From: Torpedo marmorata
Taxonomy: Eukaryota
Assembly: GCA_977017645.1 (NCBI GenBank)
Contig: OZ360233.1
Location: 18,228,001-18,292,000 of the forward strand
Direction of reading: 5' to 3'
Length of the DNA: 64,000 bases
Below the pieces are notes generated by a model. It saw only the letters and a program-made list of their open reading frames with translations, did no database searches and was not told the DNA's origin. The position numbers were made by a program, and so were the translations under genes. Positions 40-61,246 of this stretch are shown one piece after another; the first letter of the stretch is position 1; the number at the start of each line of letters is the position of its first letter.

Positions 40-192
40 CTGGGTTCCTCACCATCCAGTAGTTTGCTGATTCTTTGGGCCGTTCTGCTTGGCGAGTCTT
101 TGTCTGATTGGTCAGCGCGTGTCCCTCCCGGCTCAGCGCAATTCCTCACATATCACACTGTTTCTGGGATATTGCGGAGACGCACAAAAGTT
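40..192 (+). pseudogene. Family-B V relic with the V exon deleted; leader remnant plus RSS
   Basis: Leader-like LLILWAVLL, GC donor, intron fused directly to CACACTG-23-ACAAAAGTT (154-192). Confidence 0.75.
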
Positions 193-612
193 CATTTTGA
201 GATGGGAAGTGGTTTGAGAGAAAACGGCAGAAAGAAGACGGGAGAGCGTGTTAAGTATTGCGGAAAGTTAAGCAGGTGAAAACGTGAGACAGAGTGAGGT
301 AGATAAATAGAACGAAAGAAGGGGAGTGAGAGTGGATTCTCTGAAAGGGAGGGAGGAGATACACAGCTGGAAGGAGAAAGATGCGGGGAATGTACAGATA
401 GAGGGTGCAATATGCGTGAAGGACGGGGAATGATATGCAGACTGTCTTATCAACTCGTTCTGATTGGTTCACGAATGGCCACACGAACCAATCCTGTGTG
501 AGGGAAACACTCACATATCTGTCCTTGCCGTTGGTTCGCTCATAATATCGCCCCACCCCTTGTATAGCGGTAACACAAAGTAATATTCGATTTTGACCTT
601 AATCCGCGTACC

Positions 613-658
613 ATGTCCTCCCTGAGTTGTTTGCTGATTCTGTGGGCCGTTCTGACTG
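613..658 (+). other. Extra upstream leader exon (L0). Further copies start at 5011, 7746, 15088, 21462, 25405, 29804, 32548, 39891, 46616, 53330 and 59592
   Basis: ATG plus 15 codons (MSSLSCLLILWAVLT), then G|GTGAGT; no V exon of its own. Confidence 0.8.
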
Positions 659-919
659 GTGAGTCTGTCTGATTGGTCAGCGACGTCTGTCCATCGTCCT
701 TGCTCTACGAGTCTCCCTCTTTAACTTAATAAAAGGTATACGATTCCCCCGAGTCATACCCTCTCCGTCGCACGTTCTCCCACCGTTTACTCATTTACAC
801 ACTCTCTGTTTAATGAACTTCCTCACGGTCGCTCTGTCGATCTATCTCTCTCTCTCTCGCTCCTCGCCGTTCTCGTGAGAGGGAAACGGCCCGTGTCTCC
901 AACAAAATGTCTGCTGCTG

Positions 920-968
920 CCGACGTGAATTTGCGCTCTTCTATCGGGCGAACATTTGTAAAATATCC
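920..968 (+). promoter_or_regulatory. Putative V promoter: CRE-like GACGTGA and TATA-like TGTAAAATAT (representative)
   Basis: Conserved about 70 and 35 nt before the ATG in family A; TGACGTGA also precedes C1 (~18314). No Ig octamer seen, consistent with TCR V promoters. Confidence 0.5.
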
Positions 969-993
969 TTCCTTCGAATTTATTCCACGCATC

Positions 994-1419
994 ATGTTCC
1001 TCTTTAGTTGTTATCTGATTCTATGGGCCGTTCTGCCTTGTGGGACTGATTGATCAACACGTGTCCCGCGGGGTCAGCGGCGTTTCGCGCCGTTCACACA
1101 TTCTGTCTTTTGTTCCAGGGGCGAGTGGGAACGATTCAGTGACCCAAGAACCCCCGGAACTGATTGTCAATGAAGGACAGATCGTATCACTGAGCTGCAG
1201 TTACTCAATGGTTCCCAATGCATATTTCTGGTACATTCAACGTCCTGGAGAATCTCCCAAATATTTGCTGAAAATCTATGCGTCAGGAGATGTGGTTCCG
1301 TCGCTCGATTGTCCGGAGAGGATATCGGGTTCATTGGACAAAAAGAGCCAGACATTCCACCTCAATAACTCGAAAACCCTTGTGGAGGATTCTGCCGCGT
1401 ATCTCTGCGCCGTGGAGCT
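994..1419 (+). CDS. TRAV: TCR alpha/delta-like V segment, family A (A1); own splice donor weakened
   Basis: Leader 994-1039 (MFLFSCYLILWAVLP), donor GTGGGA rather than GTGAGA, acceptor ttccag, V exon 1119-1419 (DSVTQ..SLSCSY..WYIQ..DSAAYLCAV), RSS CACACTG-23-ACAAAAACT at 1420-1458. Alpha versus delta cannot be resolved from this window. Confidence 0.8.
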
Positions 1420-1458
1420 CACACTGTTCCAGGGCGGTGGCAGATCCGCACAAAAACT
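1420..1458 (+). promoter_or_regulatory. 23-RSS (representative; one follows each V exon)
   Basis: CACACTG, then 23 nt (ttccagggcggtggcagatccgc), then ACAAAAACT. Confidence 0.92.
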
Positions 1459-4590: not shown

Positions 4591-5397
4591 CATTCTGAGA
4601 TGGGAAGTGGTTTGAGAGAAAATGGCATAAAGAAGACGGGAGAGCGTGTTAAGGCTTGCGAAAAGTTAAGCAGGTGAAAACGTGAGACAGAGTGAGGTAG
4701 AGCAATAGAACGAAAGAAGGGGAGAGAGGGTGGAGTGAGTGAAAGGGAGGGAGGAGATCCACAGATGGAAGGAGAAAGATGCGTTGAGTGTACAGATAGA
4801 GGGTGAAATTTGCGTGAAGGACCGGGAACGAGATACAGACTGTCTTATCAACTCCGTCTGATTGGTTCAATAATGGCGACTCGAACGAATCCTGTGTGAG
4901 GGAAACACTCACATATCTGTCATTGACGTTGATTCGCTCATAACATCGCCCCACCCCTTGTATAGCGGTAACACAAAGAAATATTCGTTTTTGACCTTAA
5001 TCCGCGTACCATGTCCTCCCTGAGTTGTTTGCTGATTCTGTGGGCCGTTCTGACTGGTGAGTCTGTCTGATTGGTCAGCGACGTCTGTCCATCGTCCTTG
5101 CTCTTCGAGTCTCCCTCTTTAACTTAATTAAAGGTGGACAATTCCCCCAGGTCAAACCCTCTCCGTCACACGTTCTCCCACCGTTTACTCATTTACACAC
5201 TCTCTGTTTACTGAACTTCCTCACGGTCGCTCTTTCGCTCTATCTCTATCTCTCTCTGTCTCGCTCCTCGCCGTTCTCGTGAAAGAGAACCGGCTCGTGT
5301 CTCCAACAGAGTTTCTGCTGCTTCCGACGTGAGTTTGCGCTCTTCTATCGGGCGAGCATTTGTAAAATATTCTTCCTTCGAATTTAATCCGAGCATC

Positions 5398-5823
5398 ATG
5401 TTCCTCCTTAGTTGTTCGCTGATTCTATGGGCCGTTCTGCCTGGTGAGACTGATTGATCAACACGTGTCCCGCGGGGTCAGTGCCGTTTCGCGCCGTTCA
5501 CACATTCTGTCTTTTGTTCCAGGGGCGAGTGGGAACGATTCAGTGACCCAAGAACCGCTGGAATTGATTGTCAATGAAGGGCAGATCGTATCACTGAGCT
5601 GCAGTTACTCGATGAATCCCAATGCATATTTTTGGTACATTCAACGTCCTGGAGAATCTCCCAAATATTTGCTAACAATCTACAGGTCAGGAGATGTGGT
5701 TCCGTCTCCCGATTGTCCGGAGAGGATATCGGGTTCATTGGAGAAAAAGAGCCAGACATTCCACCTCAATAACTCGAAAACCCTTGTGGAGGATTCTGCC
5801 GCGTATCTCTGCGCCGTGAAGCT
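5398..5823 (+). CDS. TRAV: TCR V segment, family A (A2), apparently functional
   Basis: Leader 5398-5443 (MFLLSCSLILWAVLP), donor GTGAGA, V exon 5523-5823 open with Cys/Trp/YxC motifs, RSS 5824-5862. Confidence 0.85.
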
Positions 5824-6799
5824 CACACTGTTCCAGGGCGGTGTCAGATCCGCACAAAAACTCACCTCGAGACATTGAATCGGACCTATGGCTAGGGGGC
5901 GCACTCGGCCAAGCAATGGAAGCGAATACACGATCTTCCTAGAGAGTCTGCTGCAACGCCGAGATGCAGGAGATTTTCCCTCCTCTGAGCGTTTCTCTTT
6001 CTCTGCGTCCTCTGTGTCTCATTCCGTAATTTGAGGTGGAAGGTAGGAAGTCAGGGAGAGAGGAAGAAATGGATAGCTGTTTGACAGAATATTGTATGAA
6101 AATGAAGGAGTGTTTGTTAGATGGAAATTGAGAGGTTAAAAATGCTGTAAACCGCGCGGGTAGGTGTGACCGGTAGGTGATCCTTCGGCCTCTCCTTCCC
6201 AAAATCAACAACAAGCTCCTTGGTCTTGGTGAAAATAAGAACATAATTGTTGTTCTCCAACGCCCAAACCAGGTTCACCATCTCCATTCTGCATTCTGAC
6301 TCATCTTTTCCAGTTATTCGGCCACCACTGGTGGTGTCTTCAGCTAATGTGTCGGTTGAGTTGGGGCTGAACTTGGATGAACAGTCAATTGGTGCACATG
6401 GCAGAGATTGAAGGGAGGGAGAGATTGGCACTGCTCTCGAAAGATTAAATAAGTGTAAGACTGAGTCGCGAAGAGGTAGGAAGCGTAACAGAACGCGAGA
6501 AGGGGCGAGAGGGTGCAGGAGAACAAGTGAAAGTGATGAAATGGTGGAGCGAGAGTGAAGAAGTGGGAGACGTGGGAATGTAAATATAGGCGGAGAAACA
6601 CGTGCGAAAAAGAGCGAGAATTAGAAATGGTCAACATCAACAACCAGTTTTCGTTGGTCCAACAACGGCTTCTTATTGCGCCCACGTGCGCGGAGGGCGC
6701 CCTTCTCTCTGACCTAGACGATGGGCTGCTACTGACCAGACCCCATGTCTGATATCGGGGCATAAATGTTGAAATGTTCGTCTGGTGATCTTCATCCCG

Positions 6800-7561: not shown

Positions 7562-8106
7562 ATCGAGATACAGACGTTCTTAACAACTCGGTCTCATTTG
7601 TTCAATAATGGACACACGAACCAATCCTGTGTGAGGGAAACACTCTCATATCTATCCCCAGGCGTTGGTACGCTATAACATCGCCCCACGCCTTGTTTTG
7701 CGGTAACACAAATAAATATTCGCGTTTTACCGTAATCCGCGTACCATGTCCCTCCTGCGTTGTTTGCTGATTCTATGGGTTGTTCTGACTGGTGAGTCTG
7801 TCTGAGTGGTCATCGACTTCTGTCCATCGTCCTTTATCGACGTGTCTCCCTCTTTAACCTAATTAAAGTTCGGCGATTCCCCCAAGACTCACACTCCTTC
7901 GCTCACCCTCTGTTTACTCATTTAAGATTTCACTTTGTGCTCACTTAACTCACTCGCGCGGTCTCTCCCGCACTCCCGCTCTCGCCCCTCGCCGCTCTCG
8001 TGCCAGGGAAACGACCAGAGGTTCTTCTGCTTCCGACGTGCGCTGGCGAACATATGTCGGGCGAGCATTTGTAAAATATCTTTCTTTCGCATTTAGGCCG
8101 GGCACC

Positions 8107-8532
8107 ATGTTTCTCCTGAGTTTTTGGCTGATTCTATCGGCCATTCTGCCTGGTGAGACTCGTTGGGCAACACGTGACGTGCTGGATCAGCGCCGTTCCG
8201 CGCCATTCACACATTCTGTGTTTTGTTCCAGGGGCGAGTGGGAACGATTCCGTGACCCAAACACCTCCGGAATTGAGCATCGACGGAGAGCAGATCGTAT
8301 CACTGAGCTGCATTTACTCGATGAGTCCCTTCGCATATTTTTGGTACATTCAACGTCCTGGAGACTCTCCCAAATATATGCTGAAGATCTTCACGTCGGG
8401 AGATGTGGCTCTGTCTCACGATTGTTCGGAGATGATATCGGCTTCCTTGGAGAAAAAGAGCCAGAGATTCCATCTCAAAATCTCAGAAACCCGCGAGGAG
8501 GATTCCGCCGTTTATCTCTGCGCCGTGGAGCT
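8107..8532 (+). CDS. TRAV: TCR V segment, divergent family A (A3), apparently functional
   Basis: Leader 8107-8152 (MFLLSFWLILSAILP), V exon 8232-8532 (DSVTQTPPELSIDGEQ..DSAVYLCAV), RSS 8533-8571. Confidence 0.85.
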
Positions 8533-8849
8533 CACACTGTTCCAGGGCGGTGGCGGATCCGCACAAAAACTCACCTCGAGAATTTCCATCGCTCGCTGTG
8601 GCCAGCGGGCGCACTCGGGCACCGGCAGCCAGTTCTGTCGGTCAGTGCACTGGAAGCGTCAACACGACCTTCCTGGAGAGTCTGCTGAAAACGGCAAAAC
8701 CGAGTTGCAGGAGATTTGCCCTCCTCTGAGCGTTTCTCTTACTCTGCCTCCTCTGTGTCAGATTCCTTACTTTGAGGTGGAAGGTAGCAAGCCAGGGAAA
8801 GAGAAGGAGTGTTCTTGTGATGGAAATTGTGAGATTAATAAAGCGGTCT

Positions 8850-21842: not shown

Positions 21843-22268
21843 ATGTTCCTCCTTAGTTGTTATCTGATTCTATGGGCCGTTCTGCCTTGTGAGACTGATT
21901 GATCAACACGTGTCCCGCTGGGTCAGCGGCGTTTCGCGCCGTTCACACATTCTGTCTTTTGTTCCAGGGGCGAGTGGGAACGATTCGGTGACCCAAGAAC
22001 CCCCGGAATTGATTGTCAATGAAGGACAGATCGTATCACTGAGCTGCAGTTACTCGATGAATCCCAATGCATATTTCTGGTACATTCAACGTCCTGGAGA
22101 ATCTCCAAAATATTTGCTGAAAATCTATGCGTCAGGAGATGTGGTTCCGTCGCTCGATTGTCCGGAGAGGATAACGGGTTCATTGGAGAAAAAGAGCCAG
22201 ACATTCCACCTCAATAACTCGAAAACCCATGTGGAGGATTCTGCCGTGTATCTCTGCGCCGTGGAGCT
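21843..22268 (+). CDS. TRAV: TCR V segment, family A (A5), apparently functional
   Basis: Leader 21843-21888, donor GTGAGA, V exon 21968-22268, RSS 22269-22307. Confidence 0.83.
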
Positions 22269-22751
22269 CACACTGTTCCAGGGCGGTGGCAGATCCGCAC
22301 AAAAACTCATCTCGAGACATTGAATCGGACCCTATGGCTAGGGGGCGCTCTCGGCCACGCAATGGAAGCGAATACACGACCTTCCTGGAGAGTCTGCTGC
22401 AACGCCGAGATGCAGGAGATTTCCCCTCCTCTGAGCGTTTCTCTTTCTCTGCGTCCTCTGTGTCTGATGCCGTAATTTGATGTAGAAGGTAGGAAGTCAC
22501 GGAGAGAGGAAGAAACGGATAGCTGTTTGCCAGAATGAAAATGAAGGAGTGTTTGTTAGATGGAAATTGAGAGGTTAAAAAAGCGGTAAACCGCGCGGGT
22601 GGGTGTGACCGGTAGGTGATCCTTCGGCCTCTCCTTCCCAAAATCAACAACAAGCTCCTTGGTCTTGGCGAAAATAAGAACAAAATTATTGTTCTCCAAC
22701 CACGAAACCAGGTTCACCATCTCCATTCTGCATTCTGACTCATCTTTTCCA

Positions 22752-24984: not shown

Positions 24985-25785
24985 CATTTTGAGATGGGAA
25001 GTGGTTTGAGAGAAAACGGCAGAAAGAAGACGGGAGAGCGTGTTAAGTATTGCGAAAAGTTAAGCAGGTGAAAACGTGAGACAGAGTGAGGTAGATAAAT
25101 AGAACGAAAGAAGGGGAGTGAGAGTGGATTCTCTGAAAGGGAGGGAGGAGATACACAGCTGGAAGGAGAAAGATGCGGGGAATGTACAGATAGAGCGTGC
25201 AATATGCGTGAAGGACGGGGAATGATATGCAGACTGTCTTATCAACTCGTTCTGATTGGTTCACGAATGGCCACACGAACCAATCCTGTGTGAGGGAAAC
25301 ACTCACATATCTGTCCTTGCCGTTGGTTCGCTCATAATATCGCCCCACCCCTTGTATAGCGGTAACACAAAGTAATATTCGATTTTGACCTTAATCCGCG
25401 TACCATGTCCTCCCTGAGTTGTTTGCTGATTCTGTGGGCCGTTCTGACTGGTGAGTCTGTCTGATTGGTCAGCGACGTCTGTCCATCGTCCTTGCTCTAC
25501 GAGTCTCCCTCTTTAACTTAATAAAAGGTATACGATTCCCCCGAGTCATACCCTCTCCGTCGCACGTTCTCCCACCGTTTACTCATTTACACACTCTCTG
25601 TTTAATGAACTTCCTCACGGTCGCTCTGTCGATCTATCTCTCTCTCTCTCGCTCCTCGCCGTTCTCGTGAGAGGGAAACGGCCCGTGTCTCCAACAAAAT
25701 GTCTGCTGCTGCCGACGTGAATTTGCGCTCTTCTATCGGGCGAACATTTGTAAAATATCCTTCCTTCGAATTTATTCCACGCATC

Positions 25786-26211
25786 ATGTTCCTCTTTAGT
25801 TGTTATCTGATTCTATGGGCCGTTCTGCCTTGTGGGACTGATTGATCAACACGTGTCCCGCGGGGTCAGCGGCGTTTCGCGCCGTTCACACATTCTGTCT
25901 TTTGTTCCAGGGGCGAGTGGGAACGATTCAGTGACCCAAGAACCCCCGGAACTGATTGTCAATGAAGGACAGATCGTATCACTGAGCTGCAGTTACTCAA
26001 TGGTTCCCAATGCATATTTCTGGTACATTCAACGTCCTGGAGAATCTCCCAAATATTTGCTGAAAATCTATGCGTCAGGAGATGTGGTTCCGTCGCTCGA
26101 TTGTCCGGAGAGGATATCGGGTTCATTGGACAAAAAGAGCCAGACATTCCACCTCAATAACTCGAAAACCCTTGTGGAGGATTCTGCCGTGTATCTCTGC
26201 GCCGTGGAGCT
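25786..26211 (+). CDS. TRAV: TCR V segment, family A (A6; duplicate of A1); weak own donor
   Basis: Leader 25786-25831, donor GTGGGA, V exon 25911-26211, RSS 26212-26250. Confidence 0.8.
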
Positions 26212-27046
26212 CACACTGTTCCAGGGCGGTGGCAGATCCGCACAAAAACTCACCTCGAGACATTGAATCGGACCCTATGGCTAGGGGGCGCTCTCGGCCA
26301 CGCAATGGAAGCGAATACACGACCTTCCTGGAGAGTCTGCTGCAACGCCGAGATGCAGGAGATTTTCCCTCCTCTGAGCGTTTCTCTTTCACTGCTGCCT
26401 CTGTGTCTCATTCCGTAATTTGAGGTGGACGGTAGGAAGTCAGGGGGAGAGGAAGAAATGGATAGCTGTTTGCCAGAATATTGTATGAAAATGAAGGAGT
26501 GTTTGTTAGATGGAAATTGAGAAATTAAAAAAGCGGTAAACCGCGCGGGTGGGTGTGACCGGTAGGTGATCCTTCGGCCTCTCCTTCCCAAAATCAACAA
26601 CAAGCTCCTTGGTCTTGGTGAAAATAAGAACATAATTGTTGTTCTCGAACCACCAAACCAGGTTCACCATCTCCATTCTGCATTCTGACTCATCTTTTCC
26701 AGTTATTTGGCCAACACTGGTGGTGTCTTCAGCTAATGTGTCGGTTGAGTTGGGGCTGAACTAGGCTGAACGGTCAATTGGTGCACATGGCAGAGATTGA
26801 AGGAAGGGAGAGATTGGAACTGCTCTCGAAAGATTAAATAAGTGTAAGACGGAGTCGCGTAGAGGTAGGAAGCTTAACAGAACGCGTGAAGGGGCGTGAG
26901 GTTTCAGGAAAACGAGTGAAGGTGATCGAAAGGGCAGAACGAGAGAAAAGAAGAGAGAGACGTCGGGAGTGTAAATATAGGTGGAGAAATAGGTCCGAAA
27001 AAGACGGAGAATGAGAAACGTCCAACATTAACAACCAGTTTTCATT

Positions 27047-29383: not shown

Positions 29384-30190
29384 CATTCTGAGATGGGAAG
29401 TGGTTTGAGAGAAAATGGCATAAAGAAGACGGGAGAGCGTGTTAAGGCTTGCGAAAAGTTAAGCAGGTGAAAACGTGAGACAGAGTGAGGTAGAGCAATA
29501 GAACGAAAGAAGGGGAGAGAGGGTGGAGTGAGTGAAAGGGAGGGAGGAGATCCACAGATGGAAGGAGAAAGATGCGTTGAGTGTACAGATAGAGGGTGAA
29601 ATTTGCGTGAAGGACGGGGAACTAGATACAGACTGTCTTATCAACTCCGTCTGATTGGTTCAATAATGGCGACTCGAACGAATCCTGTGTGAGGGAAACA
29701 CTCACATATCTGTCATTGACGTTGATTCGCTCATAACATCGCCCCACCCCTTGTATAGCGGTAACACAAAGAACTATTCGTTTTTGACCTTAATCCGCGT
29801 ACCATGTCCTCCCTGAGTTGTTTGCTGATTCTGTGGGCCGTTCTGACTGGTGAGTCTGTCTGATTGGTCAGCGACGTCTGTCCATCGTCCTTGCTCTTCG
29901 AGTCTCCCTCTTTAACTTAATTAAAGGTGGACAATTCCCCCAGGTCAAACCCTCTCCGTCACACGTTCTCCCACCGTTTACTCATTTACACACTCTCTGT
30001 TTACTGAACTTCCTCACGGTCGCTCTTTCGCTCTATCTCTATCTCTCTCTGTCTCGCTCCTCGCCGTTCTCGTGTAAGAGAACCGGCTCGTGTCTCCAAC
30101 AGAGTTTCTGCTGCTTCCGACGTGAGTTTGCGCTCTTCTATCGGGCGAGCATTTGTAAAATATTCTTCCTTCGAATTTAATCCGAGCATC

Positions 30191-30616
30191 ATGTTCCTCC
30201 TTAGTTGTTCGCTGATTCTATGGGCCGTTCTGCCTGGTGAGACTGATTGATCAACACGTGTCCCGCGGGGTCAGTGCCGTTTCGCGCCGTTCACACATTC
30301 TGTCTTTTGTTCCAGGGGCGAGTGGGAACGATTCAGTGACCCAAGAACCGCTGGAATTGATTGTCAATGAAGGGCAGATCGTATCACTGAGCTGCAGTTA
30401 CTCGATGAATCCCAATGCATATTTTTGGTACATTCAACGTCCTGGAGAATCTCCCAAATATTTGCTAACAATCTACAGGTCAGGAGATGTGGTTCCGTCT
30501 CCCGATTGTCCGGAGAGGATATCGGGTTCATTGGAGAAAAAGAGCCAGACATTCCACCTCAATAACTCGAAAACCCTTGTGGAGGATTCTGCCGTGTATC
30601 TCTGCGCCGTGAAGCT
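30191..30616 (+). CDS. TRAV: TCR V segment, family A (A7; duplicate of A2)
   Basis: Leader 30191-30236, V exon 30316-30616, RSS 30617-30655. Confidence 0.85.
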
Positions 30617-31593
30617 CACACTGTTCCAGGGCGGTGTCAGATCCGCACAAAAACTCACCTCGAGACATTGAATCGGACCCTATGGCTAGGGGGCGCACTC
30701 GGCCAAGCAATGGAAGCGAATACACGATCTTCCTAGAGAGTCTGCTGCAACGCCGAGATGCAGGAGATTTTCCCTCCTCTGAGCGTTTCTCTTTCTCTGC
30801 GTCCTCTGTGTCTCATTCCGTAATTTGAGGTGGAAGGTAGGAAGTCAGGGAGAGAGGAAGAAATGGATAGCTGTTTGACAGAATATTGTATGAAAATGAA
30901 GGAGTGTTTGTTAGATGGAAATTGAGAGGTTAAAAATGCTGTAAACCGCGCGGGTAGGTGTGACCGGTAGGTGATCCTTCGGCCTCTCCTTCCCAAAATC
31001 AACAACAAGCTCCTTGGTCTTGGTGAAAATAAGAACATAATTGTTGTTCTCCAACGACCAAACCAGGTTCACCATCTCCATTCTGCATTCTGACTCATCT
31101 TTTCCAGTTATTCGGCCACCACTGGTGGTGTCTTCAGCTAATGTGTCGGTTGAGTTGGGGCTGAACTTGGATGAACAGTCAATTGGTGCACATGGCAGAG
31201 ATTGAAGGGAGGGAGAGATTGGCACTGCTCTCGAAAGATTAAATAAGTGTAAGACTGAGTCGCGAAGAGGTAGGAAGCGTAACAGAACGCGAGAAGGGGC
31301 GAGAGGGTGCAGGAGAACAAGTGAAAGTGATGAAATGGTGGAGCGAGAGTGAAGAAGTGGGAGACGTGGGAATGTAAATATAGGCGGAGAAACACGTGCG
31401 AAAAAGAGCGAGAATTAGAAATGGTCAACATCAACAACCAGTTTTCGTTGGTCCAACAACGGCTTCTTATTGCGCCCACGTGCGCGGAGGGCGCCCTTCT
31501 CTCTGACCTAGACGATGGGCTGCTACTGACCAGACCCCATGTCTGATATCGGGGCATAAATGTTGAAATGTTCGTCTGGTGATCTTCATCCCG

Positions 31594-32363: not shown

Positions 32364-32908
32364 ATCGAGATACAGACGTTCTTAACAACTCGGTCTCATT
32401 TGTTCAATAATGGACACACGAACCAATCCTGTGTGAGGGAAACACTCTCATATCTATCCCCAGGCGTTGGTACGCTATAACATCGCCCCACGCCTTGTTT
32501 TGCGGTAACACAAATAAATATTCGCGTTTTACCGTAATCCGCGTACCATGTCCCTCCTGCGTTGTTTGCTGATTCTATGGGTTGTTCTGACTGGTGAGTC
32601 TGTCTGAGTGGTCATCGACTTCTGTCCATCGTCCTTTATCGACGTGTCTCCCTCTTTAACCTAATTAAAGTTCGGCGATTCCCCCAAGACTCACACTCCT
32701 TCGCTCACCCTCTGTTTACTCATTTAAGATTTCACTTTGTGCTCACTTAACTCACTCGCGCGGTCTCTCCCGCACTCCCGCTCTCGCCCCTCGCCGCTCT
32801 CGTGCCAGGGAAACGACCAGAGGTTCTTCTGCTTCCGACGTGCGCTGGCGAACATATGTCGGGCGAGCATTTGTAAAATATCTTTCTTTCGCATTTAGGC
32901 CGGGCACC

Positions 32909-33334
32909 ATGTTTCTCCTGAGTTTTTGGCTGATTCTATCGGCCATTCTGCCTGGTGAGACTCGTTGGGCAACACGTGACGTGCTGGATCAGCGCCGTTC
33001 CGCGCCATTCACACATTCTGTGTTTTGTTCCAGGGGCGAGTGGGAACGATTCCGTGACCCAAACACCTCCGGAATTGAGCATCGACGGAGAGCAGATCGT
33101 ATCACTGAGCTGCATTTACTCGATGAGTCCCTTCGCATATTTTTGGTACATTCAACGTCCTGGAGACTCTCCCAAATATATGCTGAAGATCTTCACGTCG
33201 GGAGATGTGGCTCTGTCTCACGATTGTTCGGAGATGATATCGGCTTCCTTGGAGAAAAAGAGCCAGAGATTCCATCTCAAAATCTCAGAAACCCGCGAGG
33301 AGGATTCCGCCGTTTATCTCTGCGCCGTGGAGCT
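32909..33334 (+). CDS. TRAV: TCR V segment (A8; duplicate of A3)
   Basis: Leader 32909-32954, V exon 33034-33334, RSS 33335-33373. Confidence 0.85.
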
Positions 33335-34012
33335 CACACTGTTCCAGGGCGGTGGCGGATCCGCACAAAAACTCACCTCGAGAATTTCCATCGCTCGCTG
33401 TGGCCAGCGGGCGCACTCGGGCACCGGCAGCCAGTTCTGTCGGTCAGTGCACTGGAAGCGTCAACACGACCTTCCTGGAGAGTCTGCTGAAAACGGCAAA
33501 ACCGAGTTGCAGGAGATTTGCCCTCCTCTGAGCGTTTCTCTTACTCTGCCTCCTCTGTGTCAGATTCCTTACTTTGAGGTGGAAGGTAGCAAGCCAGGGA
33601 AAGAGAAGGAGTGTTCTTGTGATGGAAATTGTGAGATTAATAAAGCGGTCTGTTTAGGACAGATGCGTGTTCCTTCGGCCTGTCCTTTCTAAAATCAACA
33701 ACAAGCTCCTTGGTATTGGTGACATTAAGAACAGGATTGTTGTTCTGGAACCACCCAACCAGGTTCTTGATTTCCATCATGCATTTAGTCTCATTATTCC
33801 CAGTTATCCGGCCAACACTGGTAGCGTTGTCATCTAATTTGTAGATAGAGTTGGAGCTGAACCTGGCTGCACAGTCATGGGTGCCCATGGCATAGATTAG
33901 GGGACAAAGCAGGCAGCCTTGGACTGCTCCTGTGTTGATGGTCAGCGAGGAGGAGGTGATGCTGGCGATCAGCACTGTTTGGGTCTGCAGTGAGGAAGTC
34001 AATAATCCAGTC

Positions 34013-39061: not shown

Positions 39062-40258
39062 ATTCTGATAATTTGCAATGACCGCTGTCACTAGGGGCCG
39101 CTCTGGGTAGCCGCCAGCCTATCCTGACCCGCCCATGGAATAAATGCGACAGCGAGATTTCCCTGGTGAGGGTCTTCTCACACGACAGCGTTGAGTAACA
39201 GGAGTTCATATCTGCTCTGAGAAAAGACGTTTCTCTTCCTCTCAGTCTCCAGTGACGGAGGTTCTGAGGTGGAGGGGAAGAAGACCGAGTGATGCATATT
39301 TGGGTGGACATTGTTTCGCGAGAGAGCAGCAGCGTCAGGAAAATGTTTGCGAAAGGGATTGAGGGATAGTGTGGGAGAAATAGATAGGGAATCAGACGGG
39401 ACAGATGAGAGAGAGAAAGTGAGAACAAATGAGGTAGAGATAGAGAGCGCGAAATTGAGAGTGAGAGAGATGGGAAGTTGTTGGAGAGAAAAAGGGAGAA
39501 AGAGGACGGGAGAGCGTGTTAAGGATTGCGAAACGTTAAGCAGGTGAAAACGTGAGACAGAGTGAGGTAGAGGAATAGAACGACAGAAGGGGAGAGAGGG
39601 TGGAGTGAGTGAAAGCGAGGGAGGAGATACACAGAGGGAAGGAGAAAGACGCGGTGAATGTACAGATAGAGAGAGAAACTTGCGTGAAGGACGGGAACGA
39701 GATGCAGACTGTCGTAACAACTCGGTCTGATTGGTTCAGTCATGGTTCAATAATTGCCAAACCAACCAATCCTGTATGAGGGAAACACTCTCATTGCTGT
39801 TCCAGGCGTTTGTCCGCTCATAACATCGACCCACCCCTTGTATAGCGGTAACACATAGAAATATTCGCTTTTGACCTTAATCCGCGTTTCATGTCCCTCC
39901 TGAGTTGTTTTCTGCTTCTATGGACCGTTCTGACTGGTGCGTCTGTCTGATTGGTCACCGACTTCTGACCATCTTCCTTGCTCTCCGTGTCTCCCACTTT
40001 AATCTAATAAAAGTTCGGTGATACCCCAAGACTCACACTCGTTCTCTATCCCTCCGTTTACTCATTTACACTTTAATTCTGTGCTTACTGATCTCCCTCG
40101 CGCGATCTCTCCCGCACTCGCTCGCTCCTCGTCGCTCTAGTGCGAGGGAAACAACCCCTGTCTCCAAGAGAGGTTCTTCTGCTTCCGACGTGAGCTTGCG
40201 GCCTTTTATCGGGCGAGTATTTGGAAAATATCGTTCTCCCGAATTTAAGCCGGGCATC

Positions 40259-40681
40259 ATATTCCTCCTGAGTAGTTGGCTGATTCTATGGGCCGTTCTG
40301 CCTGGTGAGACTGATTGACAACTCATTTTGCGTGGATTCAGCGCCATCCAGCGCCGTTCACACATTCTGTGTTGTTCCAGGGGCGAGTGGGAACGATGCA
40401 GTGACCCAAAGACCGCCGGCACTGATAGTCGATGAAGGGCAGATCGTATCACTGATCTGCAGTTACTCGATGAGTGCCGAGGCATATTTCTGGTACATTC
40501 AACGTCCCGGAGAATCAACAAAATATTTGCTAAAAATTTACACGTCAGGAGATATGGTTCAGTCTCACGATTTTCCGGAGAGGATATCGGGTTCCTTGGA
40601 GAAACAGAGCCAGAGATTCCACCTCAATATCTCAAAAACCTGTGAGGAGGATTCCGCCGTGTATCACTGCGCTGTGGTTTT
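40259..40681 (+). pseudogene. TCR V segment (A9; duplicate of A4), ATA start, degenerate RSS
   Basis: ATA at 40259, V exon 40381-40681 open, RSS 40682-40720. Confidence 0.75.
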
Positions 40682-43222
40682 CACTCTGTTCCAGGGCGGT
40701 GGAGGATCCGCATAAAAACTCTCCTCGAGAATTTCCATCGCTCGCTGTGGCGAGGGGATGCACTCGGTGACGGGCAGCCAGTCCTGCCCGTCCGCTCAAT
40801 GGAAGCGACAACACGACCTTCCTGGAGAGTCTGCTGAAAATGGCAACGCCGAGTTGCAGGAGATTTGTGCTCCTCTGAGCGTTTCTCTTTCTCGGCCTCC
40901 TCTGTGTCCGATTCCTTAGTTTGAGGTGGAAGGTAGGAAGGCAGGGAGAGAGAAGGAAATGGATAGCTGTTTCCAAGAATATTGTAGGAAAAGGGAAGGA
41001 GTGTTCTTGTGATGGAAATTGAGAGATTAAAAAAGTGGTGTGGGTAGGACAGGAGCGTTACCCCTCGGCCTGTCCTTCCTAAAATCAACAAGCTCCTTGG
41101 TCTTGGTGTCATTAAGAAACAGATTGTTTATACTCCAGATGTAGCTACGACCCAATCCAATAACTGCTCTTTTCGGGTTTATTGATCCAGACATAGGGAG
41201 TTTTTCTGTACCTGTTCAACGGGTTGTGACTTTCTCTACATTGTTGGCTTGGAGAGCCATCCTATTCAAATGGAAAGATTCTAGACCTCCAACAGTGTTT
41301 CAATAGTTTTCTCATATTATGTCTTGTTTAAGCTAAGAAAAAATTAGATATCATGTATTTGATTCATCGGTGAAATTTTAAGATACATGGCGACCTTTTA
41401 TGTCTTATTTTCATATGATGTAAGTGTTTCTAATGTGATTAGGTGTATTTACTCTTCCTTTGATTTTTGATTTACGGTAGGTACCAAAAATTACAAAATA
41501 TATATAACCTTCAGGATAAGCTGCTCAGCTGTTTTTCTTTAGTTGTTTTTTTTTAATAGCGTAGGTTAGGTAGGGTTTTTTTTTTGAAAATAAAAAATAT
41601 AATACTTTTGATTTTTTTTTATTGTCAACTATTGCAGTGGAGGGGGTATCGAATTTATACTGTTTGAAATTTATTTTAATATATATACTTGTGTGATATT
41701 GTATTTTCAATTTCGTTCCCTTTTCTTCATTGTATTGTATTTCTTATAATAATCAATAAAAAAGATTGAAAAAGAAAGATTGTTGTTCTGGAACCACCCA
41801 ACACTGGTGGAGTCGCCATCTAATTTGTAGATTGAGTTGGAGCTGAACTTGGCTGCACAGACATGGATGCCCATGTCATAGATTAGGGGACAAAGCAGGC
41901 AGCCTTGGAGTGCTCCTGTGTTGATGGTCAGCCAGGAGGAGGTGATGTCGTTGATTAGCACTGTTTGGGTCTGCCAATGAGGAAGTGAAAGATCCAGTCG
42001 CAGAGGGATGGACAGAGTTCTAGATCCTTTAGCTTGGTCATAGGCTATGCAGGTATGAGGGTGTTGAACGCCGAGCCGTAGTCAATGAAGAACAGCCCCA
42101 CGAGAGTGTTTCGGTGGTCCAGGTGATTAAATGCAGAGTGGAGAGTCAGCGATATTGCGCCGTCAGTTGATCTTTTGTGGCGGTAGGTGAACTGAAGTGG
42201 GACCAGGTCCTTCCAGAGATAGGAGTAAATTCGCTCCATAACCAACCGCTGAAAACACTTCATCAGTGTTGGTCAACTTGCTCTTATTGGGCACGTCGGG
42301 GAGGGAGGAGACTGGAAGCAAATACACACAGAAATACCGGAGGAACACAGCCGGTCTCGTAGCGTCCATAGGAGGGACAGATATCTAACCAACATTCCGG
42401 CCTAAGCCCTTTTCCAAGGAATAAGCAAAGCTCAGGAAGGCGTCAGAATAGAAACTGACGACTGGCAGGGGAAGGAGTCCAGAATAACAGGTGTTAATTG
42501 GATATGGATGGAGGAGAAGTGAGAATTGATTTTGGCTCTGTGAAGGGAGNNNNNNNNNNNNNNNNNNNNNNNNNNNNNNNNNNNNNNNNNNNNNNNNNNN
42601 NNNNNNNNNNNNNNNNNNNNNNNNNNNNNNNNNNNNNNNNNNNNNNNNNNNNNNNNNNNNNNNNNNNNNNNNNNNNNNNNNNNNNNNNNNNNNNNNNNNG
42701 AGGAAGAACAACGGGGGATGTTTAACGAAAAATTGAGAAGTCGATGTTCATGCGATACGGTTGGAGGTAGCCCAGACGGAAGATGAGGTGTTGTTCCTCC
42801 AATTTGCACGTGGTCACAGTCTGGCCGTGCATGAGACCACGGACAGACATATCAGAAAGTGAGTGGATCGGCGAATTGAAATGGGTGGCCACTGGGAGAA
42901 TCACGCGTTTGCGGCGGAGAGAGCCGAGGTGCTCAACAAAGCGATCTCAGAGTCTGCGCCCAGTGTTTGCGATGTAGAGGAGACAAGAACAGACTGGAAA
43001 CGGAGCATGTGCGGGAAGGGCAGAGAAAGACAACCAGAGAGACTGCATTTAGACCTGCTCGTTTATATTGGTTCCAGCGCAGCGTCATCCAGAGGGAATG
43101 ACCAATCCTGTGCGAGGGAAAGCCACCAATCTCGGAGCGGCTGCTGCTGCTGACGTGAAGTTGTAAATATAGTAGGACAAGATGTGAGAAAATATTGTTC
43201 TTTTGACCTTCATTCGGGCATC

Positions 43223-46195: not shown

Positions 46196-47016
46196 CATTC
46201 TGAGATGGGAAGTGGTTTGAGAGAAAATGGCAGAAAGAAGACGGGAGAGAGTGGTAAGGATTGCGAAAAGTTAAGCAGGTGAAAACGTGAGACAGAGTGA
46301 GGCAGAGCAATAGAACGAAAGAAGGGGAAAGAGGGTGGAGTGAGTGAAAGGGAGGGAAGAGATACACAGATGGAAGGAGAAAGATGCAGGGAGTGTTCAG
46401 ATAGAGGGTGAAATTTGCGTGAAGGAACGGGAACGAGATGCACACTGTCTTATCAACTCGGTCTGATTGGTTCAATAATGACCACTCGAACCAATCCTGT
46501 GTGAGGGAAACACTCACATATCTGTCCTAGGCGTTGGTTCGCTCTTAACATCGCCCCACCCCTTGTATAGTGGTAATACAAAGAACTATTCGATTTTAAC
46601 CTTAATCCGCGTACCATGTCCTCCCTGAGTTGTTTTCTGATTCTGTGGGCCGTTCTGACTGGTGAGTCTGTCTGATTGGTCAGCGACGTCTGTCCATCGT
46701 CCTTGCTCTACGAGTCTCACTCTTTAACTTAATTAAAGGTGGACAATTCCCCCAAGTCAAACCCTCTACGTCGCACGTTCTCCCACCGTTTACTCATTTA
46801 CACACTCTCTGTTTACTGGACTTCCTCACGGTCGATCTGTCGCTCTGTCTCTGTAGCTCTATCTCTCTCTCTCTCTCTCTCGCTCCTCGCCGATCTCGTG
46901 AGAGGAAAACGGCCCGTGTCTCCAAAAGAGTTTCTGCTGCTTCCGACGTGAATTTGCGCTCTTCCATCGGGCGAGGATTTGTAAAATATCTTTCCTTCGA
47001 ATTTAATCCGGGCATC

Positions 47017-47442
47017 ATGTTCCTCCTTTTTCCTTCGCTGATTCTATGGGCCGTACTGCCTGGTGAGACTGATTGATCAACACGTGTCCCGCGAGGTCAG
47101 TTCCGTTTCGCGCCGTTCACACATTCTGTCTTTTGTTCCAGGAGCCAGTGGGAACGATTCAGTGACCCAAAAACCCCCGGAATTGATTGTCAATGAAGGG
47201 CAGATCGTATCACTGAGCTGCAGTTACTCGAAAAATCCCGATGCATGTTTTTGGTACATTCAACGTCCTGGAGAATCTCCCAAATATTTGCTGAAATTCT
47301 ACACGTCAGGAGATGTGGTTCCGTCGCCCGATTGTCCGGAGAGGATATCGGGTTCATTGGAGAAAAAGAGCCAGACATTCCACCTCAATAACTCGAAAAC
47401 CCTTGTGGAGGATTCTGCCGTGTATCTCTGCGCCGTGGAGCT
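47017..47442 (+). CDS. TRAV: TCR V segment, family A (A10)
   Basis: Leader 47017-47062 (MFLLFPSLILWAVLP), V exon 47142-47442, RSS 47443-47481. Confidence 0.85.
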
Positions 47443-47759
47443 CACACTGTTCCAGGGCGGTGGCAGATCCGCACAAAAACTCACCTCGAGACATTGAATC
47501 GGACCCTATGGCTAGAGGGCGCTCTCGGCCACGCAATGGAAGCGACTACACGACGTTCCTAGAGAGTCTTCTGAAAAGTGCAACGCCGAGTTGCAGGAGA
47601 TTTGTCCTCCTCTGAGCGTTTCTCTTTCTCTGCCTCCTCTGTGTCCGATTCCTAAGTTTGAGGTGGAAGGTAGGAAGTCAGGGAAAGAGAAAGATATGGA
47701 TAGCTGGAAAAGGGAAGTAGTGTTCTTCTGATGGAAATTGAGAGATTAAAAAAAGTGGT

Positions 47760-52909: not shown

Positions 52910-53701
52910 CATTCTGAGATGGGATGTGGTTTGAGAGAAAATGGCAGAAAGAAGACGGGAGAGCGTGTTAAGGATTGCGAAAAGTTAAGCAGGTGAAAAC
53001 GTGAGACAGAGTGAGGTAGAGCAATAGAACGAAAGAAGGGGAAAGAGGGTGCACTGAGCGAAAGCGAGGGAGGAGATACACAGATGGAAGGAGAAAGATG
53101 CGGCGAGTGTACAGATAGAGGGTGAAATTTGCGTGAAGGACGGGGAACGAGATGCAGACTGTCTTATCAACTAGGTCTGATTGGTTCAATAATTGCTACT
53201 CGAACTAATCCTGTGCGAGGGAAGCACTCACATATCTGTCCTTGGCGTTGGTTCGCTCATAACATCGCCCCGCCCCTTGTATAGCGGTAACACAAAGAAA
53301 TATTCGATTTTGTCCTTAATCCCCGTACCATGTCCTACCTGAGTTGTTTGCTGATTCTGTGGGCCGTTCTGACTGGTGAGTCTGTCTGATTGGTCAGCGA
53401 CGTCTGCCCATCGTCCTTGCTCTACGAGTCTCACTCTTTAACTTAATTAAAGGTGGACAATTCCCCCAAGTCAAACCCTCTCCGTCGCACGTTCTCCCAC
53501 CGTTTACTTATTTACACACTCTCTGTTTACTGAACTTACTCACGGTCGCTCTGTCGCTCTATCTCTCTCTTCTTCTGTTCTCGTGAGAGGGAAACGGCCC
53601 GTGTCTCCAACAGAGTTTCTGCAGCTTCCGACGTGAGTTTGCGCTCTTATATCGGGCGAGCATTTGTAAAATATCCTTCCTTCGAATTTAATCCGGGCAT
53701 C

Positions 53702-54127
53702 ATGTTCCTCGTTTGTCGTTCGCTGATTCTCTGGGCCGTTCTGCCTGGTGAGATTGATTGATCAACACGGGTCCCGCGGGGTCAGCGGCGTTTCGCGCAG
53801 TTCACACATTCTGTCTTTTGTTCCAGGGGCCAGTGGGAACGATTCAGTGACCCAGGAACCCCCGGAAGTGATTGTCAACGAAGGGCAGATCGTATCACTG
53901 AGCTGCAGTTACTCGATTAATCCTGCTGCATTTTTTTGGTACATTCAACGTCCTGGAGAATCTCCCAAATATTTGCTGAAAATCTACACGTCAGGGGATG
54001 TGGTTCCGTCTCCCGATTGTCCGGAGCGGATATCGGGTTCATTGGAGAAAAATAGCCAGACATTCCACCTCAATAACTCGAAAACCCGTGTGGAGGATTC
54101 TGCCGTGTATCTCTGCGCCGTGGAGCT
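53702..54127 (+). CDS. TRAV: TCR V segment, family A (A11)
   Basis: Leader 53702-53747, V exon 53827-54127, RSS 54128-54166. Confidence 0.85.
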
Positions 54128-56720
54128 CACACTGTTCCAGGGCGGTGGCAGATACGCACAAAAACTCACCTCGAGACATTGAATAGGACCCTATGGCTAG
54201 GGGGCGCACTCGGCCACGGAATGGAAGCGACTACACTACCTTTCTGGAGAGTCTGCTGTAACGCCGAGATGCAAGAGATTTTCCCTCCTCTGAGCGTTTC
54301 TCTTTCTCTGCCTCCTCTGTGTCTCATTCCGTAATTTGAGGTGGAAGGTTGGAAGTCAGGGAGAGAGAAGGAAATGGATAGCTGTTTCCAATAATATTGT
54401 AGGAAAAGGGAAGGAGTGTTCAAGTGATGGAAATTGAGAGATTAAATAAGTGTTGTGGGTAGGAGAGGAGCGTGGCCCCTCGGCCTGTCCTTCCTAAAAT
54501 CAACAAGCTCCTTGGTCTTGGTGTCATTAAGAAACAGATTGTTTATACTCCAGGTGGAGCTACGACCCAATCCAATAACTGCGCTTTTCGGGGTTATTGA
54601 TCCTGACATAGGGAGTTTTTCTGTACCTGTTCAACGGGTTGTGGCCTTCTCTACATTGTTGGCTAGGAGAGCCATCCTATTCAAATGGAAAGACTCTGGA
54701 TCTCCAACAGTGTTTCAATATTTTCCTCGTAATTATGTCTTGTTTAAGCTTAGAAAAAAATTAGAAATTATGCATTGGATTCATCGGTGAAATTTGAAGA
54801 TACATGGCGACCTTTTATGTCTTATTTTCATATGATGTAAGTGTTTCTAATGTAATTAGATGTATTTACTCTTCCTTTGTTTTTTGATTTACGGTAGGAA
54901 CCAAAAATTACAAAATATATATAACCTTCAGGATAAGCTGCTCAGCTGTTCTTTGTTAGTTGTTTTTTTTTAAATTAGCGTAGGTTCGGTGGTATTTTTT
55001 TATATGTAGTACTTTTGATTTAAAAAAAATTGTCACCTATTGCAGTGGAGTTGGGATCGAATTTATACTTTTTGAAGTTTTATTTTAATATTTATAAATG
55101 TGTGATATTGTATTTTCAATTTCGTTCACTTTTCTTGATTGTATTGTATTTCTTATAAAAATAAAAATAAAAAGATTGAAAAAGGAAGATTGTTGATCTG
55201 GAACCACACAACCAGGTTCATGATTTCCATCCTGCATTCTGGCTCATCTTTTCCAGTTATTCACCCAACACTGGTGGTGTCGACATCTCATTTGTAGGTT
55301 GAGTTGGAGCTGAACTTGGCTGCACAGTCATGGATGCCCATGGCATGGAGTGGGGGACAAAGCAGGCAGCCTTGGAGTGCTCCTGTGTTGATGGTCAGCG
55401 AGGAGGTGGTTGATGTGGTTGATTAGCACTGTTTGGGTCTGCCAAAGAGGAATTCAAAGATCCAGTCGCAGTGGGATGGACAGAGTTGTAGATCCTTCAG
55501 CTTGGTCATAGGTTTTGCAGGGATGAGGGTGTTGAACGCCGAGCTGCAGTCAATGAGCAACAGCCCCACGAATGTGGTTCGGTGGTCCAGGTGATTTAAT
55601 GCAGAGTGGAGAGTCAGCGATATGAAGCCGTCAGTTGACCTTTTGTGGCGATATGTGAACTGAAATGTGACCAGGTCCTTCCAGAGATAGGAGTAAATTC
55701 GCTCCATAACCAACCTCTGAAAACATTTCATCACAGTCGGTCAACTTGCTCTTCTTGGGCAAGTCGGGGAGGGAGGAGATTGGAAGCAAATACACACCGA
55801 AATGCTGGAGGAACACAGCCGGTCTCGCAGCGTCCATAGGAGGGACAGATATCTAACCAACGTTTCGGCCTAAGCCGTTTTTCAAGAACTAAGAAAAGCT
55901 CAGGAAGGCGTCAGAATAAAAACTGACGACTGGCAGGGGCAGGAGTCCAGAATAACAGGTGTTAATTGGATATGGATGGAGGGGAAGTGAGAATTGATTT
56001 TGGCTCTGTGAAGGGAGACAGAGGGAAAGGCGANNNNNNNNNNNNNNNNNNNNNNNNNNNNNNNNNNNNNNNNNNNNNNNNNNNNNNNNNNNNNNNNNNN
56101 NNNNNNNNNNNNNNNNNNNNNNNNNNNNNNNNNNNNNNNNNNNNNNNNNNNNNNNNNNNNNNNNNNNNNNNNNNNNNNNNNNNGGGAAAAGCGACAGGAG
56201 GAAGAACAACGGGGGATGTTTAACGAAACATTGAGAAGTCGATGTTAATGCCACCCGGTTGGAGGTATCCCAGACGGAAGATGAGGTGTTGTTCCTCCAA
56301 CTTGCACGTGGTCACTGTCTGGAAGTGCATGAGACCATGGACAGACATGTCAGAAAGTGAGTGGATCGGGGAATTGAAATGGGTGGGCACTGGGAGATCC
56401 ACGCGATGGCGGCGGAGAGAGCCGAGGTGCTCAACAAAGCGATCTCAGAGTCTGCGCCCAGTGTCTGCGATGTAGAGGAGACAAGAGCAGACTGGAAACG
56501 AAGCATGTACGGGAAGGGCAGAGAAAGACAACCAGAGAGACTGCATTTAGACCTGCTCGTTTATATTGGTTCCAGCGTAGCGTCATCCAGAGGGAATGAC
56601 CAATCCTGTGCGAGGGAAAGCCACCACTCTCGGAGCGGCGGCTGCTGCTGACGTGAATTTGTAAATATAGCAGGACATCATGTGAGAAAATATTCATGCT
56701 TTGACCTTCATTCGGACACC

Positions 56721-59171: not shown

Positions 59172-59988
59172 CATTCTGAGATGCGAAGTAGTTTGAGTGT
59201 AAATGGCAGATAGAAGACGGGAGAGCGTGTTAAGGTTTGCGAAAAGTTAAGCAGGTGAAAACGTGAGACAGAGTGAGGTAGAGCAATAGAACGAAAGAAG
59301 GGGAAAGAGAGTGGAGTGAGTGAAAGGGAGGGAAGAGATACACAGATGGAAGGAGAAAGATGCGGGGAGTGTACAGATAGAGGGTGATATTTGCGTGAAG
59401 GACCGGGAACGAGATGCAGACTGTCTTATCAACTCGGTCTGATTGGTTCAATAATGGCCACTCGAACCAATCCTGTTTGAGGGAAATACTCACATATCTG
59501 TCCTAGGCGTTGGTTCGCTCATAACATCGCCCCACCCCTGGTATAGCGGTAACACAAAGAACTATTCGATTTTGTCCTTAATCCGCGTACCATGTCCTCC
59601 CTGAGTTGTTTGCTAATTCTGTGGGCCGTTCTGACTGGTGAGTCTGTCTGATTGGTCAGCGACGTCTGTCCATCGTCCTTGCTCTACGAGTCTCACTCTT
59701 TAACTTAATTAAAGGTGGACAATTCCCCCAAGTCAAACCCTCTCCGTCGCACGTTCTCCCACCGTTTACTCATTTACACACTCTCTGTTTACTGAACTTC
59801 CTCACGGCCGCTCTGTCGCTCTATCTCTGTTGCTCTATCTCTCTCTCTCTCTCGCTCCTCGCCGTTCTCGTGAGAAGGAAACGGCCCGTATCTCCAAAAG
59901 AGTTTCTGCTGCTTCCGACGTGAGTTTGCGCACTTCTATCGGGCGGGAATTTGTAAAATATCCTTCCTTCGAATTTAATCCGGGCATC

Positions 59989-60414
59989 ATGTTCCTCCTT
60001 TGTCCTTCGCTGATTCTATGGGCCGTTCTGCCTGGTGAGACTGATTGATCAACACGTGTCCCGCGGGGTCAGTGCCGTTTCACGCTGTTCACACATTCTG
60101 TCTTTTGTTCCAGGGGCGAGTGGGAACGGTTCAGTGACCCAAGAACCCCCGGAAGTGATTGTCAACGAAGGGCAGATCGCATCACTGAGCTGCAGTTACT
60201 CGATGAATCCCAATGCATATTTTTGGTACATTCAACGTCCTGGAGAATCTCCCAAATATTTGCTGAAACTCTACACGTCAGGAGATGTGGTTCCGTCTCC
60301 CGATTGTCCGGAGAGGATATCGGGTTCATTGGAGAAAAAGAGCCAGACATTCCACCTCAATAACTCGAAAACCCTTGTGGAGGATTCTGCCGTGTATCTC
60401 TGCGCCGTGAAGCT
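59989..60414 (+). CDS. TRAV: TCR V segment, family A (A12)
   Basis: Leader 59989-60034, V exon 60114-60414, RSS 60415-60453. Confidence 0.85.
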
Positions 60415-61246
60415 CACACTGTTCCAGGGCGGTGGCAGATACGCACAAAAACTCACCTCGAGACTTTGAATCGGACCCTATGGCTAGGGGGCGCACTCGG
60501 CCACTCAATGGAAGGGAATACACGACCTTCCTGGAGAGTCTGCTGCAACGCCGAGATGCAGGAGATTTTCCCTCCTCTGAGCGTTTCTCTTTCACTGCTG
60601 CCTCTGTGTCTCATTCCGTAATTTGAGGTGGACGGTAGGAAGTCAGGGGGAGAGGAAGAAATGGATAGCTGTTTGCCAGAATATTGTATGAAAATGAAGG
60701 AGTGTTTGTTAGATGGAAATTGAGAAATTAAAAAAGCGGTAAACCGCGCGGGTGGGTGTGACCGGTAGGTGATCCTTCGGCCTCTCCTTCCCAAAATCAA
60801 CAACAAGCTCCTTGGTCTTGGTGAAAATAAGAACATAATTGTTGTTCTCGAACCACCAAACCAGGTTCACCATCTCCATTCTGCATTCTGACTCATCTTT
60901 TCCAGTTATTTGGCCAACACTGGTGGTGTCTTCAGCTAATGTGTCGGTTGAGTTGGGGCTGAACTAGGCTGAACGGTCAATTGGTGCACATGGCAGAGAT
61001 TGAAGGAAGGGAGAGATTGGAACTGCTCTCGAAAGATTAAATAAGTGTAAGACGGAGTCGCGTAGAGGTAGGAAGCTTAACAGAACGCGAGAAGGGGCGT
61101 GAGGGTGCAGGAAAACGAGTGGTGATCGAAAGGGCAGAACGAGAGAAAAGAAGAGAGAGACGTCGGGAGTGTAAATATAGGTGGAGAAATAGGTCCGAAA
61201 AAGACGGAGAATGAGAAACGTCCAACATTAACAACCAGTTTTCATT

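Follow-up and report, generated by a model that had tools for sequence, protein, structure and literature searches.

An additional leader exon, very probably inherited from a V-deleted cassette, precedes the family-A V genes of a TCR-like locus of Torpedo marmorata

Canonical TRAV/TRDV genes are built from one promoter, an L-PART1 exon, a short intron, a V exon and a 23-RSS, a layout that is also found in families C and F of the locus analysed here and, in the accessible text of PMC5931798, in the nurse shark TCR alpha V genes. The family-A V genes of this Torpedo marmorata locus share with that layout a leader exon (L1), a leader-V intron of 76-79 nt, a V-set exon of 301 nt and a 3' RSS with a 23-bp spacer. 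Unlike the canonical genes, however, they have an additional promoter and leader exon (L0) 336-411 bp upstream of L1, and the L1 promoter is truncated. Where does the additional leader come from, and which of the two leaders would the gene use?

The locus and the family-A unit

The analysed DNA consists of the window, i.e., the 64,000 nucleotides from 18228001 to 18292000 of contig OZ360233.1, together with 198 kb upstream and 200 kb downstream of it (462 kb in total). Blastn identified 55 family-A V exons in the 462 kb, 12 of which are located in the window, and L0 and L1 are both present in 55/55; because the V exons were located independently by blastn, the L0 count is free of ascertainment via a leader search. 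The features of the window are the following.

46..192, + strand: family-B1 cassette with its V exon deleted; dead leader, and intron stub fused to the RSS at 154-192
413..612, + strand: P0, full-length V promoter paralogue before L0; about 200 bp aligned to the upstream regions of families B, D and C; its -70 CRE-like site is degenerate
446-451, 463-467, 488-492 and 549-558, + strand: P0 motifs, respectively GATA-like, ATTGG, CCAAT and CACCC box (CGCCCCACCC at 549)
613..658, + strand: L0 leader exon, 46 nt, phase 1, MSSLSCLLILWAVLT, donor CTG/GTGAGT
659..680, + strand: ancestral L0 intron stub; homology to canonical introns fades past about 20 nt
681..866, + strand: pyrimidine-rich spacer found only in family-A units; without V exon, RSS or conserved in-frame acceptor
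867..993, + strand: P1, truncated L1 promoter; homology from about -127; CRE-like core CGACGT at 921-926
994..1039, + strand: L1, proximal leader exon; donor degraded to CTT/GTGGGA (4/9 consensus matches)
1040..1118, + strand: leader-V intron, canonical, 79 nt, with acceptor
1119..1419, + strand: family-A V exon, open, V-set domain, TCR alpha/delta-like
1420..1458, + strand: RSS with 23-bp spacer (CACACTG / ACAAAAACT)
5011..5862, + strand: A1 unit; L0 5011, L1 5398, V 5523, RSS 5824
7746..8571, + strand: A2 unit; L0 7746, L1 8107, V 8232, RSS 8533
15088..15885, + strand: A3 unit; L0 15088, L1 15424 (ATG>ATA), V 15546 (open), RSS 15847 (CACTCTG / ATAAAAACT)
21462..22307, + strand: A1 unit; L0 21462, L1 21843 (donor CTT/GTGAGA), V 21968, RSS 22269
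25405..26250, + strand: A1 unit; L0 25405, L1 25786 (donor CTT/GTGGGA), V 25911, RSS 26212
29804..30655, + strand: A1 unit; L0 29804, L1 30191, V 30316, RSS 30617
32548..33373, + strand: A2 unit; L0 32548, L1 32909, V 33034, RSS 33335
39891..40720, + strand: A3 unit; L0 39891, L1 40259 (ATG>ATA), V 40381 (open), RSS 40682
46616..47481, + strand: A1 unit; L0 46616, L1 47017, V 47142, RSS 47443
53330..54166, + strand: A1 unit; L0 53330, L1 53702, V 53827, RSS 54128
59592..60453, + strand: A1 unit; L0 59592, L1 59989, V 60114, RSS 60415

The family-A V genes have the hallmarks of TCR V genes, namely the conserved Cys/Trp/Cys, a split leader and a phase-1 intron; the V exon frame is open in 52/55 copies, and the four V exons tested all match the V-set profile PF07686. 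Their PDB matches include TCR alpha chains, mixed with antibody fragments. The closest named protein in a HMMER search is a little-skate gene model (47%; best V-like matches, 47-48%), and this search returned distant relatives only, none of which discriminates L0 from L1. No cDNA-derived leader matched at 1e-15 in a word-indexed search of protein databases, and a profile search of the genome for a constant region (PF09291) was without match. The nurse shark alphaV4 leader primer, as given in the accessible text of PMC5931798, encodes WIVWAV, which resembles the LILWAV of family A. Related V exons extend downstream for about 1 Mb, to at least 19.27 Mb of the same contig, and we interpret the locus, from its sequence, as the distal end of a TCR alpha/delta V array of cartilaginous-fish type. 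An additional Cys occurs in the CDR2 region of several family-A copies.

The repeat unit of the array has the order C (or E), D, B and then L0-L1-A; V exons are mostly open in families C and A only, and families D, B and E are dead. Family A comprises three subfamilies, A1-A3, that are 16-19% apart (37 copies of A1 and 10 of A3). The initial annotation cautioned that the copies are not independent, and this caution was justified, as the 12 window copies represent 8 lineages at 1% distance and all 55 copies form 29 clusters at 2% distance. As assembled, the array contains apparent segmental duplications that are large and very recent, with periods of 24.8 kb and ~83.5 kb; the window pairs 613/25405, 5011/29804, 7746/32548 and 15088/39891 are at 0-1% distance, and a further duplicated pair (122112/205638) is located outside the window. 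An AT-rich, 5'-truncated LINE-like insert with a poly-A end is present at about 2250-3787 of the window. It has a weak zf-RVT match (E=1.3e-4, below the Pfam cut-off), and it is flanked by an unusually long (~200 bp) direct duplication of the B promoter region, at about 2050-2253 and 3785-3987. Dead family-B V pseudogenes with recognisable 23-RSSs are found at 4552, 29345, 46157, 52871, 59133 and 63547; judging from these signals, family-B pseudogenes may still rearrange non-productively.

Origin of the upstream leader

Alignment, the limits of homology and the phylogenetic tree all assign the upstream leader to a separate, paralogous V cassette. The 200 bp of P0 align with the upstream regions of the single-leader cassettes B3, B1, D and C with scores of 101, 96, 91 and 54, respectively (z 9-30), whereas the direct alignment of P0 with the region upstream of L1 has a score of 25 (z 1-2). 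Homology to the single-leader cassettes continues through the L0 leader and the first ~20 nt of its intron, and then fades. When promoter and leader are used to build a tree, L0 forms its own clade (100%), placed beside D (65%) and B (the three together, 89%) and apart from L1. Thus, L0 is not a duplicate of L1 but the head of a fifth cassette that lacks its V and RSS; a V exon and an RSS were sought between L0 and L1, and neither is present there. It had been noted as a caveat in the initial annotation that L0 could be a leftover of a V-deleted cassette. This is now the best-supported origin, and the homology of P0 and L0 together with the tree make it very probable. Such an origin is compatible with L0 being functional, L0 being better kept than L1.

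Probably, one rearrangement in the ancestor of A1-A3 removed V0, RSS0 and the distal part of the P1 promoter, and the fused L0-L1-A unit was then amplified in tandem. The homology of P1 to other cassette promoters begins at about -127. V exons have also been lost independently in the same array, in 8/38 B1 cassettes of the 462 kb, by a 310-bp deletion that took out the V exon and acceptor and fused the RSS heptamer to an intronic CACAC run. V-less B1 cassettes are present in the window at 46-192, 20895 and 24838; their 23-RSS (CACACTG, 23 bp, ACAAAAGTT) is located ~420 bp upstream of L0, and it could be either a deleting element or inert.

The spacer between L0 and L1 consists of ~190 bp of pyrimidine-rich, array-specific DNA. 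We rejected a dispersed repeat as its source, since all 48 matches listed are within the array (40 of 54 candidates scored). An origin from an inverted piece of the GA-rich upstream tract was not demonstrated either: the blastn matches were low-complexity, and the best profile match had an E-value of 0.15, compared with 0.4 for the reversed control.

Which leader the gene would use

According to the initial annotation, each of the 12 family-A genes in the window has an intact 46-nt, phase-1 L0 exon ~335-400 bp upstream of L1, with a GTGAGT donor in 10 copies and GTGCGT in 2. The ATG positions, length, phase, peptides and donors were all confirmed (GTGAGT 10/12, GTGCGT 2/12), and the spacing between the two ATGs measures 336-401 bp in the window. 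The absence of stops, frameshifts and ATG losses, found in 12/12 window copies, extends to 55/55 copies of the 462 kb, in all of which the ATG, open frame and GT donor are kept and the 46 nt are in phase 1 and in frame with the V exon downstream. At the rate of the flanks, ~6.5 disabling changes would be expected in 55 copies, against the 0 found (P=0.0014, assuming, like every P value given here, independent sites, an assumption that gene conversion in a tandem array violates). Consistent with use of L0, the pairwise distance among the 37 A1 copies is 0.012 for L0, versus 0.070 for L1, 0.047 for V and 0.065-0.082 for the flanks; over 52 sites, the A1 derived alleles number 8 vs 19 (one-sided p=0.026, under the same assumption); and only 0.6% of flank windows reach the invariance of L0, as determined for the 29/37 A1 copies that have a full B1 neighbour. 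The h-region of L0 is also more hydrophobic (2.7-3.4) than that of L1 (2.4-2.7), and in A1 and A2 the predicted U1 pairing of the L0 donor (-9.2 kcal/mol) is stronger than that of the L1 donors (-8.1, -4.4 or -3.6 kcal/mol).

Other observations argue against use of L0. In A3, where most copies have lost the L1 ATG, the L0 donor, CTG/GTGCGT (-4.8), is weaker than the L1 donor in 9/10 copies, and over all 55 copies the allele ratio to the flanks is the same for L0 (0.65) as for L1 (0.66). The initial annotation proposed a comparison of dN/dS; the pN/pS of L0 is 1.28 (L1, 0.95; V, 0.74), which gives no sign of codon-level selection and means that the low variation of L0 is not amino-acid specific.

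The proximal leader is not uniformly intact: L1 is damaged in 5/12 window copies. The ATG has become ATA at 15424 and 40259, and a G>T change at donor position -1 is present at 994, 21843 and 25786, the donors at 994 and 25786 also carrying +3 A>G. In the 462 kb, the L1 lesions comprise seven ATA changes, two stops and five donor -1 G>T changes; they affect 13/55 copies in total, among them the one at 994 that the initial annotation had cited. The V exon is open in 12 of these 13 copies, as would be expected if L0 were in use. Against this, L1 is undamaged in the other 42, and its hard lesions correspond to 2-3 events vs 6.5 expected (P 0.04-0.11, sites again taken as independent). The RSSs of A3 are deviant in 10/10 copies (heptamer CACTCTG or CACTCCG, nonamer ATAAAAACT; e.g., 15847 and 40682), and given these RSSs and the weaker L0 donor, the A3 ATA copies may simply be pseudogenes.

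In TCR V promoters, CRE-like decamers are important elements, on which Anderson, Chou and Loh (1988) reportedly worked. The promoter motifs described for P0 at 446, 463, 488 and 549 are indeed at these positions, but they are not present in every copy: in the window, ATTGG is found in 10/12, CCAAT in 9/12, the GATA-like site in 8/12 and the full CGCCCCACCC in 7/12. Over the 462 kb, P0 has ATTGG and CCAAT in 47/55 copies each and lacks the -70 CRE-like core. P1, on the other hand, lacks the upstream ATTGG, has a degenerate CCAAT (0/55) and has GACGT at -70 in 50/55 copies, the core being CGACGT, with TGACGT in 1/55 only. The live family C promoter has ATTGG near -155 (25/28), CCAAT near -120 (28/28) and TGACGT near -70 (25/28). 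P0 thus resembles it in having both boxes, of which P1 has neither, and this favours use of L0; the missing -70 core, kept by family C and the L1 promoter, and the overall variation of P0 at the flank rate (0.735 vs 0.734) count against it. P1 also varies at the flank rate.

Based on these sequence comparisons, we estimate a probability of roughly 0.55 that L0 is the promoter and leader of a deleted neighbour that now provides the main (or sole) leader of the downstream family-A gene. Transcription would begin at P0, and splicing would join L0 to the V acceptor across a ~460-nt intron with L1 inside it, generating an in-frame leader-V whose signal peptide would consist of the L0 peptide and the first V-exon codons. 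L0 is the likelier leader in use because it is intact while L1 is damaged in some copies. On a P0 transcript, splicing from the L1 donor would reduce L0 to an upstream ORF of 19 codons; hence, loss of the L1 ATG or donor would be harmless or favourable. Two other routes were rejected. L1 as an internal exon after L0 is disfavoured by the lack of a conserved acceptor (the candidates are nearly all out of frame, and 31/55 copies have none), and read-through from L0 via the spacer into L1 meets a stop after 19 codons in 55/55.

The initial annotation proposed a dual-promoter, alternative-leader architecture or, alternatively, a driver of germline transcription through the V-RSS. This view is partly supported; a balanced design is less supported than a takeover by L0, because the lesions are all in L1, whose promoter no longer has its CCAAT half. 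A true dual-promoter V gene, in which both leaders are used and P0 and P1 use may differ by stage or lineage, is nevertheless the alternative that survives best, although we consider it unlikely. It accommodates the complementary retention of motifs, with the CCAAT pair kept by P0 and a CRE-like core by P1, and the state of L1, which besides being mostly undamaged is indel-free and has kept its GT in 55/55. Moreover, between subfamilies L0, L1 and V diverge by 0.12-0.17, which is less than the spacer and intron (0.17-0.26). However, within A1 the divergence of L1 is at the flank rate (0.070), the ATG loss, stop and donor weakening of L1 have separate origins, and P1, which varies at the flank rate, has the core CGACGT instead of TGACGT (the latter in 1/55). 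A rather doubtful possibility is that the deletion-fused gene, with two live, complementary promoters (a CCAAT-type P0 and a CRE-type P1) and two signal peptides, was amplified more than any other V family at this end of the locus, and that promoter choice sets the timing or the T-cell lineage of its opening and expression.

It is improbable, but worth weighing, that L0 is an inert relic, in which case the short-promoter L1 works, L0 has stayed intact through the youth and homogenisation of the array, and the copies with broken L1 are pseudogenes. L1 does keep ~127 bp of promoter including the CRE-like core, many copies are near-identical, and L0 is without a dN/dS signal. The dead families also bear on this explanation. 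Decay of the neighbouring family-B leaders had been contrasted with the integrity of L0; these leaders have decayed, ATG and GT both being lost in 55/55 B1/B2/B3 leaders, but this represents one shared ancestral lesion and not many independent decays. We therefore rejected family B as a decay control for L0. Leader variation is nonetheless low in dead families, being 0.024 in D vs 0.069 in its flanks and 0.033 in B1 vs 0.062 (the leader-vs-flank comparison took 37/38 B1 and 26/28 C copies), and the allele ratio of the D leader (0.38) is almost that of L0 in A1 (0.39), all of which argues against use of L0. Family D has a dead V exon, with its acceptor AG replaced by CG in 16/21 copies, and yet its leader keeps the ATG and GT in 21/21 detected copies, with an open frame and a GTGAGT donor. 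In six further D cassettes (6/27) the leader has been removed by a shared deletion, which makes family D only a partial control; this loss occurred on a shorter tree (0.42) than that of L0 (~1.07), over which, with subfamilies 16-19% apart, L0 acquired no disabling change. The open V exons of 12/13 L1-damaged copies also speak against a relic, though the lesions are recent. The D leaders of the window are at 19565, 44408 and 57388; an intact D leader is either a slow-drift control or a further candidate upstream leader. Located further upstream, it might act as a third donor.

It is established that V segments undergo germline transcription. That P0 is regulatory only, lending its CCAAT boxes (~510-530 bp from the L1 ATG) to a start near L1 or driving sterile V-RSS transcription for RAG, with the L0 coding frame incidental, is very improbable, since the exon and donor are best conserved and not the boxes (8/55 copies lack ATTGG, and 8/55 lack CCAAT), and P0 varies at the flank rate.

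Relation to known systems and meaning for the V family

Capture of a promoter or first exon after partial tandem duplication or deletion is a general mechanism. The family-A unit is like other such cases in having the 5' remnant of one paralogue before the next, and unlike them in that the captured exon codes for a signal peptide and sits in an antigen-receptor V array. The closest parallel is in mouse, where Chou et al. (1987) are said to have originally reported the leader of TRBV12-2 (Vbeta5.1) on the V exon of TRBV13-2 (Vbeta8.2). According to the accessible part of a recent preprint, 46,029/69,248 mouse transcripts first annotated as TRBV13-2 use the TRBV12-2 leader, so that the upstream leader is the major one (bioRxiv 10.64898/2026.01.30.702900). 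In both systems, two leaders are potentially available to a V exon, namely its own and the one belonging to the cassette upstream. The mouse donor gene TRBV12-2 is complete, however, whereas here the V exon and RSS of the donor are gone, part of the recipient promoter is missing, the distance is as short as ~380 bp and the fused unit has been amplified to 55 copies; likewise, the leader splice has been demonstrated in mouse, whereas the L0-V splice of family A is deduced. By analogy, the family-A arrangement would be a hard-wired form of the leader borrowing between TRBV12-2 and TRBV13-2, without being identical to the mouse case. In the literature searched, which was thin on subscription journals, we found no description of cartilaginous-fish V genes with two leaders, and the accessible parts of PMC11496355, PMC6825295, PMC6230588 and PMC2189238 contain nothing on such an arrangement.

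In summary, from the sequence we regard the L0 feature as real, its origin as explained and its function as plausible. Should L0 be in use, annotation that assigns the nearest leader to each V exon would wrongly class up to 12/55 genes as pseudogenes or ORFs, and primers designed accordingly for the leader would target the wrong exon. With its natural L1-null alleles, the array also provides material for testing which promoter elements are required by a TCR V gene of cartilaginous fish. Use of L0 would further mean that a V gene whose own promoter and leader are damaged can persist on those of a deleted neighbour, the fused unit being able to expand into a 55-copy family, and this would be a fixed, heritable version of the leader borrowing of mouse Vbeta genes.
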